Origin: an uncultured bacterium
GTDB lineage: Bacteria; Actinomycetota; Acidimicrobiia; Acidimicrobiales; VFJN01
Direction of reading: 5' to 3'
NCBI GenBank assembly: GCA_963717085.1
Contig: CAVQVM010000011.1
Span: 233,108-297,107, forward strand
Length of the DNA: 64,000 bases
Under the pieces are notes generated by a model. It saw nothing but the letters and a program-made list of their open reading frames with translations, searched no databases and was not told the origin of the DNA. A program made the position numbers and the translations under genes. Below are positions 32,796 to 63,826 of the stretch, piece by piece (the stretch's first letter is position 1; every line of letters starts with the position of its first letter).

Positions 32796-32926
32796 TGCTT
32801 CCCGCTCTTGCTGCTTCGCAGCGGGCCGCTCGGGCTGTCGACGTGTTTTCTCCCGCTCCCACGGCCGCTCGGGCCGGGCTCGCTCTCACCTTGCTTCCCC
32901 GTCACCCTCGACGGACGCTCGCTCAT
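32792..32926 (-). repeat. Intercistronic dispersed repeat (copy A) containing a 44-codon mini-ORF ATGA-coupled to both neighbours
   Basis: The Fe-S gene TGA (32925-32923) overlaps ATG 32926. The mini-ORF (MSERPSRVTGKQGESEPGPSGRGSGRKHVDSPSGPLRSSKSGKQ) has a TGA (32794-32792) that overlaps the FAD-oxidase ATG 32795. Its 3' 45 nt are 43/45 identical to copy B. Confidence 0.8.
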
Positions 32927-43122: not shown

Positions 43123-43199
<77 letters not shown>

Positions 43200-49856: not shown

Positions 49857-51128
49857 GTGGCCCTGGTAATACTCTGCGTGGTGATCGTCGGCGGGGGTGT
49901 CTTGGCCGTTGCGGTCGAGATGCTGGCGGCCAGTACGGACCAGCCTGCCACGGAAAGCGCCGATCTCCCCAGCGCCCGGAGGCGCTGGGGCGACACTGCG
50001 CTCGTCACCCGGCGCCGGGCCGAGACCGTCGTGCGGGCCACATGCCGAGGTGCCGTCCGGTGCACCGACCGCTCCGGGCTGGCGCTCGGCTTCGCCACGG
50101 GTGCGATGGCGCGTACTAGTGTCCGGGCGGCCCATTCCTGCCGGCACGCCGCCGCGGCGACCGGACGGGCAGCGGGTCAGGCTGGAGCTCAGACTGGGCG
50201 GACGGTCCTGAGCGTCAGCATGCGAGCCGGTCAAGCGACAGGAAGAGCGAGCATGCAGGCCGGGGAAGCGACGGGACGAGCGAGCATGCAGGCCGGTCGA
50301 GCCACCGGGCACGCCGGCACTCGCGCCGGCCGCCGGGCGGTCGCCGTCGCCCGCGGAGGCGGTGCCGCCCTGGTCGCCGCCGCCGCGACGGTCGGGGCAT
50401 CCACCGTGGCGGTGATCGGCGCCGGCAAGGCCCGGACGGCCGCGTTCGTCCGTCGGGCGGCGGCGGGCACACGCCGGACCGGAGCCCGGACCGCGGCAGG
50501 GACGGCGGAGGCCGTCCGGCGAGGCGGCGGGCGGGCGACCGTCGCCACGAGGCGGGGGACCCGACGAGCCGCGCATGCGACCAGGCGTGCCGCCACCCGC
50601 TTGGTGCCCGAGCCGGTAGCCATGCCCGACGAAGCGGACGATCGTGGCGCCCGATTCGCACGGGAGCCGGCCGCCGTCGCCGCCACTCCCGCAGCAGGGA
50701 CGGCGAAGCCGGCGGCCTTCGGGCCCGAGCCGGCGACCATCGAACCCGAACCGGTGGCCGTAGCGGCCAACCCCGCAGCCTTCGAGCCCGAGCCGGCCCC
50801 CTCCACGGCCATCCCCCCGATCTTCGAGGCCGAGCCCGCAGCCTTCGAGCCCGAGCCGGCCCCCTCCACGGCCATCCCCGCGACCACCGATGCGGTGGAC
50901 GCGGCCGCCGCTGGTCCCGTCGGCGTCGTCTCGACCGGCGACGGGCGAGGTCCGCCGCCGCAGCGTCGACTCGAGCAGGGCCAGGTGGTACCCCTGCGGC
51001 CCCGCGCGACGACCAGGCTCAGGGCGACGGGCGAGCTGCTGGTGCTGGTCGCCATTCTCGGCCTGGTGGTCTCGGGCATCATCGTTGCCTTGGCCGTGGC
51101 CGGCAACCAGGTGCTGAGCGGGCTCTGA
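49857..51128 (+). CDS. Repeat-rich Ala/Arg/Pro low-complexity protein with N- and C-terminal hydrophobic helices
   Basis: GTG 49857. This frame has consistently G/C third positions. N-terminal helix LVILCVVIVGGGVLAVAV, C-terminal helix LLVLVAILGLVVSGIIVALAVA, and internal 11-aa and 21-aa repeats. Confidence 0.45.
   Translation: MALVILCVVIVGGGVLAVAVEMLAASTDQPATESADLPSARRRWGDTALVTRRRAETVVRATCRGAVRCTDRSGLALGFATGAMARTSVRAAHSCRHAAAATGRAAGQAGAQTGRTVLSVSMRAGQATGRASMQAGEATGRASMQAGRATGHAGTRAGRRAVAVARGGGAALVAAAATVGASTVAVIGAGKARTAAFVRRAAAGTRRTGARTAAGTAEAVRRGGGRATVATRRGTRRAAHATRRAATRLVPEPVAMPDEADDRGARFAREPAAVAATPAAGTAKPAAFGPEPATIEPEPVAVAANPAAFEPEPAPSTAIPPIFEAEPAAFEPEPAPSTAIPATTDAVDAAAAGPVGVVSTGDGRGPPPQRRLEQGQVVPLRPRATTRLRATGELLVLVAILGLVVSGIIVALAVAGNQVLSGL
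50217..50315 (+). repeat. 33-bp tandem repeat x3 (encodes SMRAGQATGRA / SMQAGEATGRA / SMQAGRATGHA)
   Basis: Units start at 50217, 50250 and 50283. Confidence 0.85.
50772..50879 (+). repeat. 45-bp perfect direct repeat at 63-bp spacing (encodes PAAFEPEPAPSTAIP twice)
   Basis: CCCGCAGCCTTCGAGCCCGAGCCGGCCCCCTCCACGGCCATCCCC occurs at 50772-50816 and 50835-50879. Confidence 0.85.
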
Positions 51129-51778: not shown

Positions 51779-52849
51779 TCACGGCCGGCTCCACGTGGAC
51801 TCCCAGGCGCCGAGCTCGGACTCGAATGCGGCCCGGAGCTCGGGCGGGGCGAACGACGCCGACATCGACCGCCGCTGCAGCGCCGCCAGGCCCCCCGCGT
51901 CGACCCCGTGGTGCTGGGTCACCAGGGCGAGCTCCCGCTCGAGCGTGGTCGAGAAGTAGCCGGGGTCGTCGGTGTTCACCGACACGTCCATCCCCAGGCC
52001 GATCATCTCGCCGATCGGATGATCCGCGATCGACGGTGCGGTGACGCCGAGCAGCGCATTGGAAGTGGGCGAGACCTCGAGCGGGACCTGTTCGTCGACC
52101 AGGCGCTGCGCCACCGATCGGTCCTCGAGCGCACGCACGCCATGGCCGATCCGTACAGCGCGAAGGCTGTCGAGGGCGCCGGTCACGCTCGCCGGCCCCG
52201 CGGCCTCGCCGGCGTGCACCACCGCCGGGACGCCGGCCGCCCGGGCGCGGGCGAACGTGTCGGCGTAGAGCTCGGGCGGCCACTCCGCCTCCGGCCCGCC
52301 CAGGCCCATCGCCACAGCCCCAACCGGTGCATTTGCGCCCGCCAGCAGCGAGGCGGTCAGGTGGTCGTCGGGAAGCTCCTGGCCTCGGGAGATGTCCAGG
52401 ATCCAGCGGACCTCGACGCCGCGGGCCGCAGCCCGCCGCTGGGCCTCGTCGAGGGCCGCGGCGTAGGCGGCCTCACCCCAGCCCCGGGTGCGGACGTGAT
52501 TGACCGGCGTGCTCGTGACCTCCGCCCACCGGACGCGCTGGCGCGCCAGCTCCTCGGTAAGCGCGTCGGCGCAGCTGACCAGATCGTCGGGCGTGCGCAG
52601 GACCGCGAGGCCAGCGCGGAACAGCTCGATGAAGTGGAGGAAGTCGCGGAACTGGTACCGCTTCGCCAGCTCGGCCTCGGACTCGACCCCGAGGTCGACA
52701 CCGTTGCGCTCGGCCAGCGCCAGCACCGTCGACGGCCGCATCGACCCCTCGAGGTGGACGTGGAGCTCGACCTTCGGGAGGGCGGCGATGGCCTCGGCGG
52801 GGACGGGGCCGGCGGGATCAGGGCCGGCGGCCATCACTAGTGGACGCAC
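51779..52849 (-). CDS. add: Adenosine deaminase
   Basis: PKVELHVHLEGS, HAGE, SVNTDDPGYFSTTLERE motifs. The start may be an internal Met. Confidence 0.9.
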   Translation of the reverse strand: MRPLVMAAGPDPAGPVPAEAIAALPKVELHVHLEGSMRPSTVLALAERNGVDLGVESEAELAKRYQFRDFLHFIELFRAGLAVLRTPDDLVSCADALTEELARQRVRWAEVTSTPVNHVRTRGWGEAAYAAALDEAQRRAAARGVEVRWILDISRGQELPDDHLTASLLAGANAPVGAVAMGLGGPEAEWPPELYADTFARARAAGVPAVVHAGEAAGPASVTGALDSLRAVRIGHGVRALEDRSVAQRLVDEQVPLEVSPTSNALLGVTAPSIADHPIGEMIGLGMDVSVNTDDPGYFSTTLERELALVTQHHGVDAGGLAALQRRSMSASFAPPELRAAFESELGAWESTWSRP

Positions 52850-53063
52850 CGTGGGAGGCCTCCAACACGCCGCCGCACCCCCGGCACCGGGCCCGCCATC
52901 CCGTCGGCGTGACCTGCACGGTCAGCCAGCGGCCGCAGTCCACGCAGAAGCGCCACGGCTCGTAGGGGCCGGAGCAACCCGGGCACTCCTCCACGGGAGC
53001 ACCGCACCCCGAGCAGTGGCGCCAGTGGGCCGGGGCGGGGAGAGTCGAGCGCGCAGGTGCCAA
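52818..53063 (-). CDS. Small zinc-ribbon protein (four CxxC pairs)
   Basis: CSGC, CPGC, CVDC, CRGC. High third-position GC. The only in-frame start is TTG 53063, 9 nt after an AGGAG. Overlaps the add 5' end. Confidence 0.5.
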   Translation of the reverse strand: MAPARSTLPAPAHWRHCSGCGAPVEECPGCSGPYEPWRFCVDCGRWLTVQVTPTGWRARCRGCGGVLEASHGASTSDGRRP

Positions 53064-53262
53064 CTCAGATCACTCCTGAGGCCGAGCGCAGGCGAGGCCG
53101 GCCCGAGCGGCCGTGGGAGCGGGAGGCACACGCCGAAGCCCGAGCGGCCGTGGGAGCGGAAGGCGCATGCCGAAGCCCGAGCGGCCCGGCGCCGGAGGCG
53201 CCAAGAGCGGGAAACGCCGCGGACGCTCGACGCACCTTCTCTAGCCCTCCCACTCAGATCAC
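53063..53262 (+). repeat. Dispersed repeat copy C (inverted relative to host genes) with 37-bp sub-repeats, flanked by an 11-bp direct repeat
   Basis: The + strand carries GCCCGAGCGGCCGTGGGAGCGGGAGG..., matching the minus strand of copy A. Sub-repeats 53101-53137 and 53138-53174 are 34/37 identical. ACTCAGATCAC occurs at 53063-53073 and 53252-53262. Confidence 0.75.
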
Positions 53263-54258
53263 CTTCGACAGCGTGCCCACGGGCATGCGCAGGTTGTCGA
53301 GCATGACCAGGTCCTCCTGTGGGGCTCGGCCCAGGGTCGTCAGGTAGTTGCCGACGATCAGGGCGTTGACGCCCGCCGTCATCCCCATCTCCTGCAGCTC
53401 ACCCAGCGTGACCTCCCGGCCGCCGGCATAGCGCAGGATCACGTCCGGCAGGGCCAGGCGGAACAGCGCGATCCAGCGGATCGCCTCCCGCGCCGCCACC
53501 AGCGGGCGACCGGCCAGCGGCGTGCCCGGGCGGGGATCGAGGAAGTTGAGGGGCACCTCGGCCGGCCCCGCCTCCCGCAGCTGCCCGAGCAGCTCGATGC
53601 GCTGCTCCTCGGATTCCCCCATCCCCAAGAGCACGCCACAGCACAGCTCCATCCCGTTCTGCCGGACGAGCTGGCAGGTGGCGAACCGCTCCTCCCAGGT
53701 GTGGGTGGTCACGATGTGCGGGAAGTGCGACCGGGCGGTCTCGAGGTTGTGGTTGTAGCGGTGGGTACCGGCGGCGGCGAGGCGACGGGCCTGGTCGTCG
53801 TCGAGGATGCCGGCGCTGACCGCGACGTTGAGGCCCGTCTCGCGGCGGATGAGGGGCACGACCTCCTCGAGATGCGCCATCAACCGCTCGTCGGGGCCGC
53901 GCACGGCGTAGACCAGGCAGAACTCGCTGGCTCCCAGGGCCGCCGTCTCCGTGGCCGCGGCCACCACCTCGTCGTGTCCCAGCAGCGGGACCGCCTTCAC
54001 CGGCGAGTCGTAGCGCGCGGACTGCGAGCAGAACTGGCAGTCCTCGGGGCAGCCGCCCGTCTTGGCGGACAGGATCCCCTCGACCTCGACGACGTCGCCG
54101 CACCACGCCAGGCGCACCTCGTGCGCGAGCGCGGCCAGCGGCGCGTCGTCGGCATCGGGCACACCCGCCAGGTCCGACAGCTCGTCGAGTGTCAGCTGGC
54201 GCCGATCGTCGAGCAGCGCCCGTCGGGCGGCGTCGAGCAGTTCGGTCGTGGCTGGCAC
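53254..54258 (-). CDS. bioB: Biotin synthase
   Basis: Radical-SAM CPEDCQFCSQS, YNHNLET, and the C-terminal region typical of BioB. I prefer GTG 54258 (334 aa); the long ORF up to 54750 is an upstream extension. Confidence 0.88.
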   Translation of the reverse strand: MPATTELLDAARRALLDDRRQLTLDELSDLAGVPDADDAPLAALAHEVRLAWCGDVVEVEGILSAKTGGCPEDCQFCSQSARYDSPVKAVPLLGHDEVVAAATETAALGASEFCLVYAVRGPDERLMAHLEEVVPLIRRETGLNVAVSAGILDDDQARRLAAAGTHRYNHNLETARSHFPHIVTTHTWEERFATCQLVRQNGMELCCGVLLGMGESEEQRIELLGQLREAGPAEVPLNFLDPRPGTPLAGRPLVAAREAIRWIALFRLALPDVILRYAGGREVTLGELQEMGMTAGVNALIVGNYLTTLGRAPQEDLVMLDNLRMPVGTLSKVI

Positions 54259-62148: not shown

Positions 62149-62287
62149 TGCTCCCCGCTCATGCTGCTTCGCAGCGGGCCGCTCGGGCTCCGGCGTGTGA
62201 TCTTCCGCTCTTGCGTGTCGCACGTCACCCTGACGCGGCGGGCCGCTCGGGCCCAAGACTCACTCTCTCGCCCTTCGGGACGCTCGT

Positions 62288-62291: not shown

Positions 62292-63540
<1,249 letters not shown>

Positions 63541-63544
<4 letters not shown>

Positions 63545-63826
63545 GAGCGGAGCTCCTGACCGGTCGACCGTGTGACCGCCAGGGAGCCGGGCGACGATGG
63601 GGTCCGGGGGCGCAGCCCCCGCGGGAGCACGGTCATGAGCGGAGCTCCTGACCGGTCGACCGTGTGACCGCCAGGGAGCCGGGCGACGATGGGGTCCGGG
63701 GGCGCAGCCCCCGCGGGAGCACGGTCATGAGCGGAGCTCCTGACCGGTCGACCGTGCGACCGCCAGGGAGCCGGGCGACGATGGGGTCCGGGGGCGCAGC
63801 CCCCGCGGGAGCACGGTCATGAGCGG
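63541..63826 (-). repeat. 92-bp tandem repeat, 3 full copies plus a 10-bp partial fourth, including the senX3 RBS and start codon
   Basis: Copies at 63541-63632, 63633-63724 (identical to the first) and 63725-63816 (one substitution). TCATGAGCGG recurs at 63817. Confidence 0.95.

Follow-up and report, generated by a model that had tools for sequence, protein, structure and literature searches.

A modular intercistronic repeat inserted in reverse orientation between bioB and bsaP in an acidimicrobial genome, with duplication of the gene junction

How can a junction as tight as that between bioB (biotin synthase) and bsaP (biotin synthase auxiliary protein), at which the stop codon of one gene may abut the start codon of the next, come to hold a modular repeat in reverse orientation, and what becomes of the signals of the two genes when it does? 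The question is raised by a stretch of 64,000 nucleotides from an uncultured acidimicrobial bacterium (hereafter the window), which holds three copies of one repeat, named A, B and C. The initial annotation, made from the letters alone, described copy C as an inverted copy lying between bioB and a small gene with four CxxC motifs, composed of 37-bp sub-repeats and bracketed by an 11-bp direct repeat, and took it for a transposition-like insertion with the signature of a MITE, a miniature transposable element with inverted repeats. Our analysis shows that copy C is an insertion at bioB/bsaP accompanied by duplication of the target junction. With confidence somewhat above even, we read it as a vertically inherited insertion of a modular intercistronic repeat in which the duplicated junction keeps the signals of both genes.

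Both genes are read on the minus strand, and from bioB to bsaP the locus comprises the following features.

53254..54258, minus strand: bioB (biotin synthase), 334 codons plus stop, TIGR00433 at 351 bits; the proteins of relatives are 334 residues long.
53252..53262, minus strand: upstream junction repeat GTGATCTGAGT, holding GTG ATC (Val-Ile) of bioB, its TGA (53256-53254) and the GT of the old bsaP start.
53065..53253, minus strand: 62-codon bridging open reading frame (ORF), which opens with the GTG next to the bioB TGA, closes at the duplicated TGA and is in frame with bioB.
53214..53251, minus strand: locus-specific segment of 38 nt, GGGAGGGCTAGAGAAGGTGCGTCGAGCGTCCGCGGCGT, kept in all filled lineages.
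53175..53213, minus strand: module 1, long form, TTCCCGCTC-TT-hairpin-G-GGCCGCTCGGGC, with the hairpin GGCGCC TCC GGCGCC at 53188-53202.
53138..53174, minus strand: module 2, short form of 37 nt, TTCGGCATGCGCCTTCCGCTC-CCAC-GGCCGCTCGGGC.
53101..53137, minus strand: module 3, short form of 37 nt, identical with module 2 at 34/37 positions.
53074..53100, minus strand: family tail, short form, CGGCCTCGC-CTG-CGCTCGGCCTC-AGGA, which provides most of the AGGAG ahead of bsaP.
53063..53073, minus strand: downstream junction repeat, in which the TGA at 53067-53065 closes the bridging ORF and which holds the first base of the bsaP TTG (53063).
52818..53063, minus strand: bsaP (biotin synthase auxiliary protein), 81 residues, TTG start, four CxxC motifs, NCBIfam NF052237.

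The small gene, a zinc-ribbon gene in the initial annotation, is thus bsaP (41.3 bits for NF052237 against a cutoff of 39, with a weak match to the Pfam BsaP family), and the AGGAG reported 9 nt ahead of its TTG is present at 53077-53073 on the minus strand. On that strand the end of bioB, TCG AAG GTG ATC TGA, is followed up to module 1 by GTG GGA GGG CTA GAG AAG GTG CGT CGA GCG TCC GCG GCG T, and the tail of copy C reads CGGCCTCGCCTGCGCTCGGCCTCAGGA before the second GTGATCTGAGT and the TTG GCA CC of bsaP.

The description of the element itself was borne out. Its three modules of 37-39 bp match copies A and B in inverted orientation, and over 34 nt in the region of module 3 (53092-53125 against 32850-32883 of copy A) the complementarity is 97%. 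Tandem Repeats Finder reported a period of 37 over 53101-53186 (2.3 copies, 93% matches), in agreement with the sub-repeats identical at 34 of 37 positions. The exact 12-mer GGCCGCTCGGGC occurs seven times in the window and is confined to the three elements, with two occurrences on the plus strand in A, two on the plus strand in B and three on the minus strand in C; with one mismatch allowed it gives 15 matches against 4.8 expected, a number reached in 0 of 100 shuffles. The 62-codon minus-strand ORF is also present as claimed.

Copies A and B show the canonical design of the repeat.

32796..32922, plus strand: copy A, flanked by a GlcF/GlpC-like Fe-S gene on one side and a gene for a GlcD-like FAD oxidase on the other.
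62149..62287, plus strand: copy B, in the spacer that separates the gene of a senX3/PhoR-like kinase from that of a regX3-like regulator.

All four flanking genes lie on the minus strand and the core on the plus strand, opposite to transcription. At both copies the upstream TGA overlaps the ATG that opens a mini-ORF, and the TGA of the mini-ORF overlaps the downstream ATG, so that an ATGA stands at each end and the bridging ORF has 44 codons at A and 48 at B. Modules measure 39-64 bp at A and B and 37-39 bp at C. The site of copy B is empty in the relatives L197 and L201-204 (loci of other genomes are given by L numbers), which read GGATGAGTACC or ..GGCAGGATGAG.. with a plain ATGA overlap, and is filled in the window and in L198/199, with ATGA on both sides. 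The spacer that holds copy B corresponds to the operon position in which the mycobacterial interspersed repetitive unit (MIRU) was first found in M. tuberculosis.

The bioB/bsaP junctions of relatives, gathered by exact-protein look-ups and a metagenome scan, gave the following states of the site.

L197 and L200 (BioB 93% identical): empty, ..GGGTGATCTGAGTGGCA.., the bioB stop abutting the bsaP start.
L196 (BioB 96% identical): empty, ..GGGTCATCTGAGTGGCA...
L205/206, L210, L211/212 and about 20 more distant relatives (L116-L139): empty, with 0-10 nt between stop and start or with an overlap of the two (TGATG, GTGA).
Window: filled, three modules, repeat GTGATCTGAGT.
L001: filled, two modules.
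L198 and L199: filled, four and five modules, repeat GGTGATCTGA.
L201-204 and L207-209: filled, one module, repeat AAGGCCATCTGA.

Each filled locus (window, L001, L198, L199, L201-204 and L207-209) carries an element and two copies of the junction, whereas L196, L197 and L200 read TGAGTGGCA with a single junction copy. The empty site that the initial annotation had predicted for the bioB 3' end was found almost letter for letter in L197 and L200, and none of the relatives examined carries the 11-mer twice without the element. The same site holds one, two, three, four or five modules in related strains, as expected of a modular, length-variable family, and the number probably changes by slippage in steps of 37 bp. 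The bridging ORF has 62 codons in the three-module allele, 48 in the two-module allele (L001) and 38 in the one-module allele (L201), and in all three it ends inside the downstream repeat, which has TGA in two frames; in L201 it stops at the duplicated TGA, as in the window, and in L001 it stops 5 nt earlier in the other frame. Since changes in the number of 37-bp modules shift the frame, the bridging ORF is not a conserved peptide.

On the plus strand ACTCAGATCAC stands at both 53063-53073 and 53252-53262, 189 bp from start to start, as reported, and includes the last two bioB codons and the stop. Taken alone the 11-mer is only moderately unusual (flank pairs of the same geometry across the window share an exact repeat of at least 11 nt in 1.5% of cases and of at least 13 nt in 0.4%), and we consider it real because of its precise location at the gene junction and because of the empty sites. 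The repeat measures 4 bp (ATGA) at copy B, as derived by comparing empty with filled sites, ~6 bp at A and 10-13 bp at C. In 100 family elements the distribution of the longest flanking repeat resembled that of the control, with no excess of long repeats; the outliers were copy C, L090 and some shorter matches at non-Acidimicrobiia loci that seem to be unrelated; long flanking repeats are therefore ruled out as a rule of the family. The proposed inverted similarity of the ends of copy C exists but is weak, at about 8/11 to 9/13 matches (CGAGCGTCCGCGG versus CGCCTGCGCTCGG), and is absent from other members, whose left end opens directly with the first module, without an inverted tail; the right-hand tail of copy C is of the family type GGCCTCGC..CGCTCGGCCTC. 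Thus the insertion and the duplication of the junction stand, but the variable length of the repeat disfavours a transposon-like mechanism, and the insertion chemistry is probably not that of a fixed-stagger transposase.

Several other accounts of the ends were rejected. Terminal inverted repeats bounded by CTAG, as in IS630-like elements, were prompted by L041 and by the CTAG at 53228-53231; in 20 tail-bearing elements the right tails are conserved and the left ends unrelated. A duplication of ~55 bp, with the 38-nt segment as a decayed bsaP 5' region, found no footing in global alignments to eight bsaP 5' regions, which scored at shuffle level (p >= 0.07 in 23 of 24 comparisons; the lowest, p = 0.014, is uncorrected for 24 tests). 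BLAST of the segment against all loci matched the orthologous bioB loci alone (L001, L198/199, L201-204 and L207-209), and an exact match of 18 nt in L099, which falls within a coding region, is due to chance. We place no weight on the 13-bp repeat of L001, which may reflect a homopolymer miscall (T for TT) in a long-read assembly with 79 gap openings over 6.4 kb.

What, then, would let the junction tolerate a reversed element? The 3' end of bacterial 16S rRNA reads ...GAUCACCUCCU. The letters AAGGUGAUC, which code for the last three residues of BioB, are complementary to it and stand at the right distance from the bsaP start, and AAGGTGATC within the last bioB codons is probably the Shine-Dalgarno site of bsaP; this putative function would account for the conservation of ..AAGGT(G/C)ATCTGA among relatives. 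Because of its reversed orientation, copy C brings no start or stop codons of its own. The insertion duplicated a piece of the junction comprising the last bioB codons, the TGA stop and the bsaP start, and since the duplicated segment holds end codons, stop and start, both genes are preserved and a bridging ORF is created. In this mechanism bioB would keep its native end and bsaP a native-like context of ribosome-binding site, stop and start, while the bridging ORF runs from the old start, a GTG or ATG behind the bioB TGA, to the duplicated stop. This ORF may carry terminating ribosomes over the element and so couple the translation of bsaP to that of bioB; termination 1-5 nt from the bsaP start, behind the AGGAG, would permit re-initiation. 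A reversed insertion in so tight a junction would thus survive only with a ribosome-binding site, stop and start on both sides. In mycobacteria the function of BioB depends on BsaP (PMC11099021), which makes selection for co-expression plausible.

The history of the site was followed on a bioB tree built by neighbour joining. In this tree the window and L001, both filled, form the sister group of the empty clade of L196, L197 and L200 (bootstrap 1.0), the L198/199 and L201 groups unite with all of these in one clade (0.885), and the empty L205, L210 and L211 lie outside. One gain and one precise loss make two events and independent gains make three, so the absence of the element from one sister clade is most simply explained by precise loss. 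Between lineages the element is 80-88% identical, close to the third-position identity of bioB (78-85%), a value in line with near-neutral evolution of orthologous copies; insertions whose master copies were themselves diverging could fit it too. In L201-L204 and L207-L209 (e.g. L201:10990-11130) the C-terminus of BioB is ..SKAI, and the derived GCC stands in each of the two repeat copies (GCCATC), against GT(G/C)ATC at this place in outgroups and the other filled lineages. A single ancient insertion needs conversion between two 12-bp repeats ~100 bp apart to give GCC/GCC, and independent insertions need three hits on one junction by one subfamily; duplication and deletion at the level of the unit could also homogenise the junction copies.

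Two of the rival explanations concern how the element arrived. A classical MITE, that is, a non-autonomous transposon with terminal inverted repeats that is moved by a transposase encoded elsewhere and leaves the 11-13 bp repeat as a target-site duplication, would account for the flanking repeat with its empty sites, the weakly inverted ends and the patchy presence on the bioB tree. We regard it as improbable and do not retain the MITE-like signature of the initial annotation: the repeat has no fixed length, the flanks of 100 elements look like the control, the left ends of other members lack the inverted tail, and the modules are direct rather than inverted. An accident of replication or repair copying, with no dedicated machinery, in which a nascent strand switches to a family copy by microhomology of the CGCTC/TGGGA type and returns upstream of its exit, duplicating 11-18 bp, with later duplication or deletion of whole units keeping the junction copies alike, also seems unlikely to us, though it keeps some weight. 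It agrees with the variable repeat length, the shifts of module number in 37-bp steps, the GCC/GCC co-variation and the family-like motifs (CCCGCTCGCTCGAC) in the bsaP 5' region of empty sites. Units that contain a junction do duplicate in the window, since a 92-bp unit with the ribosome-binding site and start of the kinase gene is repeated there (3.2 tandem copies at 99%). Against such an accident speak the strong orientation bias and the class-wide conservation of the 12-mer, which suggest a specific recognition factor, as well as the canonical copies that end exactly on ATGA and the fact that BLAST against all loci found no donor copy with the 38-nt segment.

The other two rivals give copy C a function of its own. 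A regulatory RNA or DNA signal between bioB and bsaP (attenuator, processing site or internal promoter) would have parallels in the conserved local hairpin with its compensatory changes and in the MIRUs of the M. tuberculosis senX3-regX3 spacer, which can drive regX3 expression (PMC4213456). The region as a whole, however, folds no better than shuffled sequences (z = 0.17 as RNA, 0.50 as DNA), and copy C has no Rfam match, which rules out a globally structured RNA or DNA; a promoter or terminator inside copy C is likewise ruled out, no such site having been found in 52600-53500. As the element is also missing in sister lineages, has one to five modules elsewhere and carries a decayed hairpin in the L201 lineage, we consider a regulatory signal very improbable. 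That the 62-codon ORF encodes a functional small protein is hardly credible, despite its open frame and its GTG directly after the bioB stop in the bioB frame: the peptides of different alleles differ (62, 48 and 38 residues), their composition is repetitive and of low complexity, and the element is absent from sister lineages.

Our preferred reading, an inherited insertion with a signal-bearing duplicated junction, has evidence to contend with as well. At 72% G+C the bridging ORF could be a by-product of composition, and because the repeat has TGA in two frames, two of the three frames would end there in any case. L198/L199 have CTG as their upstream start codon and a frame that continues into bsaP, in long-read assemblies that are prone to indels. 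The L201 lineage has a weakened form of the putative Shine-Dalgarno site (AAGGCCATC), and its repeat is perfect nonetheless. Between lineages the two copies of the repeat change together (GTG/GTG versus GCC/GCC), which selection on separate functions does not account for, and the presence of the element on the bioB tree is patchy. The 38-nt segment has no counterpart elsewhere, so that the upstream boundary of the element is uncertain, and the gene calls of the family survey described below rest on a crude rule of codon-position G+C. Finally, we can name no enzyme or insertion mechanism for the family, no transposase search having been made.

A bolder proposal, which we hold only as a speculation and think improbable, is that the Acidimicrobiia possess a still-active machinery aimed at operon stop/start junctions, possibly also moving mycobacterial MIRUs. 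If so, copies would insert in either orientation, excise precisely and re-insert, reversed insertions would be viable through copying of the whole ribosome-binding-site/stop/start junction, and the junction copies would stay identical through rounds in which the element is excised and re-inserted, or in which units are duplicated and deleted. This would account for the GCC/GCC co-variation and for the patchy distribution at the bioB/bsaP and kinase/regulator sites.

Two further observations touch these loci. At 63537-63826 of the window, between a surE-like gene and the senX3-like kinase gene, lies the 92-bp tandem repeat (3.2 copies, 99% identity); on the minus strand its unit starts with ATGACCGT of the kinase gene and ends with GGTCAGGAGCTCCGCTC (ribosome-binding site), and each unit forms a mini-ORF of 31 codons, its TGA overlapping the ATG that follows. 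At this site L198 and L199 have two units, with a GGCCGCTCGGGC module just upstream. The BsaP proteins of this genus (window, L196, L197 and L200) carry an N-terminal extension of ~15 residues, MAPARSTLPAPAHWR, that is missing in more distant relatives; its DNA holds family-like motifs, CCCGCTCGCTCGAC among them, which may be left over from an earlier insertion or may reflect a preferred target.

Beyond this locus the repeat forms a family whose unit consists of CCCGCTC, a variable hairpin or CCAC, and GGCCGCTCGGGC; units of 27-64 bp stand head to tail and close with a tail of the CGCTCGGCCTC type. A scan of one genome per species for two GGCCGCTCGGGC cores 22-52 nt apart gave at least 114 stretches, at least 72 of which come from metagenome-assembled genomes (MAGs) named Acidimicrobiales, Acidimicrobiia, Microthrixaceae, Ca. 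Aldehydirespirator or Ca. Poriferisodalis; among the matches listed, 13 are from unnamed Actinomycetota or bacteria and the rest are mostly unrelated microsatellites of other phyla. The orientation survey covered 109 clusters, with genes called by the codon-position rule after a check on the window. Among the clusters listed, 45 lie between co-directional genes, 17 in divergent spacers and five in convergent ones, and all cores within a cluster are on one strand. The 45 co-directional clusters divide, among the matches listed, into 38 canonical ones, with the core opposite to transcription, and seven reversed ones. Copy C belongs to this reversed minority, and the family does not keep to the single orientation that characterizes MIRUs. 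A complete chain of overlap-coupled ORFs was present in 17 of the 38 canonical copies, often with ATGA at every module boundary (e.g. L019 and L062); ATGA stands at both ends in A, B, L019, L042, L053 and L062. The tail type GGCCTCGC..CGCTCGGCCTC[T/A/G][A/G]G of copy C recurs in L073, L075, L005, L041 and others.

Between CCGCTC and the core, three kinds of stretch occur: a CCAC type of 3-10 nt, a non-pairing TTGTTCGCTGCGCTCACG class and a hairpin class, in which at least eight distinct stems pair perfectly and the loops are TTC, TGC or TCC. Long modules carry the hairpin of 4-7 bp; short modules and the common TTGTTCGCTGCGCTCACG class are without it. In 18 hairpin variants both sides change in five of six pairs, a covariation score reached by 0 of 500 shuffles; the complete pairing of these variants is partly circular, because they were chosen for folding, which leaves the compensatory changes unaffected. 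Read from the complementary strand, the loops are GAA, GCA or GGA, and GNA triloops closed by C-G are unusually stable DNA mini-hairpins.

Other arrays in the survey differ in form. L005 and L041 (Ca. Aldehydirespirator and Acidimicrobiales chromosomes) hold arrays of up to 6-7 identical 43-44 bp modules that end in a long tail, GGCCTCGC..variable..CGCTCGGCCTCTAGG. Many arrays of this type lie in divergent spacers and thus cannot serve as intercistronic couplers. A different repeat, of 58 bp and containing GGCCGCTCGGGC, is found at L090:3560-3860 (Solirubrobacterales MAG CAWHSI010000001.1), flanked by the 15-bp direct repeat CGCACGGAGATGAGC, in which GGAGATGA comprises a ribosome-binding site and an ATGA stop/start junction. 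Apart from copy C, L090 is the sole outlier of the flank survey whose repeat contains a junction.

Outside the three elements, the window contains 33-bp and 21/63-bp tandem repeats at 50217-50302 and 50681-50890, upstream of or within a PDZ/Lon-like gene, which are probably coding low-complexity repeats, and a single Rfam hit as follows.

43126-43199, minus strand: tRNA gene, Rfam RF00005, 66 bits.

Among known systems the family comes closest in architecture to the MIRU (Supply et al. 1997, Mol Microbiol 26:991), whose units of 40-100 bp, often in tandem and variable in copy number, lie between the genes of operons, as C lies in bioB/bsaP, A between the Fe-S and FAD oxidase genes and B between kinase and regulator. 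MIRUs insert at start codons with a 4-nt overlap (PMC12548453), were first found in the senX3-regX3 spacer (PMC4213456), to which that of copy B is similar, and according to later reviews have empty counterparts in M. leprae (PMC12548453, PMC3184786). Shared features are the small ORFs that overlap the flanking stop and start codons (ATGA), which copy C achieves only via its duplicated junction, the preferred orientation (38:7 in this family, not strictly single) and, at copy B, the tetranucleotide direct repeat with empty sites. The family is distinguished by its host class, Acidimicrobiia rather than Mycobacterium, by its units of 27-64 bp, by its motifs (CCCGCTC and GGCCGCTCGGGC with a variable hairpin), the likeness to MIRUs being one of architecture and not a sequence comparison, and by the reversed copy C with its 10-13 bp junction duplication in place of ATGA. 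The initial annotation held that classical descriptions of such repeats underplay mobility, but tetranucleotide direct repeats and empty and filled sites are already given in reviews of the 1997 work (PMC3184786, PMC12548453).

Resemblance to other systems is more partial. The repetitive extragenic palindromes and mosaic elements (REP/BIME) of enterobacteria and pseudomonads, associated with RAYT transposases, are likewise short, G+C-rich units in modular mosaics of variable length, with a stem-loop such as the long modules here carry and the short ones lack, often between operon genes and with conserved motifs beside the hairpin; however, REPs alternate in orientation within BIMEs, whereas the modules here are all direct, REPs form no coupled ORFs, and HUH-type insertion expects no flanking duplication. 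BOX elements of Streptococcus pneumoniae share a variable number of a middle module and dispersed intergenic copies, but are unrelated in sequence and host, have boxA and boxC ends that can pair, and show no stop/start coupling. Bacterial MITEs (Correia/NEMIS, ERIC) are also small, non-coding and dispersed, and insertion polymorphism with a flanking repeat is seen at C, but they have clear terminal inverted repeats and a fixed short duplication (e.g. TA) in contrast with the weak ends and 4-13 bp found here. A literature search for repeats in Acidimicrobiia found no paper, and the family is a new, Acidimicrobiia-wide counterpart of MIRU-type repeats, the concept itself being already known.

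The family thus provides comparative material on how MIRU-type repeats move and are tolerated inside operons, a question that has stood since 1997. It offers a MIRU-like architecture in a distant actinobacterial class, with copies that run into the hundreds in complete MAG chromosomes, with filled alleles clearly distinct from empty ones and with both orientations, and the bioB/bsaP site shows what an insertion in reverse orientation must duplicate to be viable. The small ORFs also bear on annotation, including that of gene starts, in high-G+C genomes. Taken together, our results suggest that tight stop/start junctions, here that of bioB and bsaP, can absorb 100-260 bp of repeat DNA, in which case the bridging ORF and the second copy of the junction would keep the expression of the two genes coupled.

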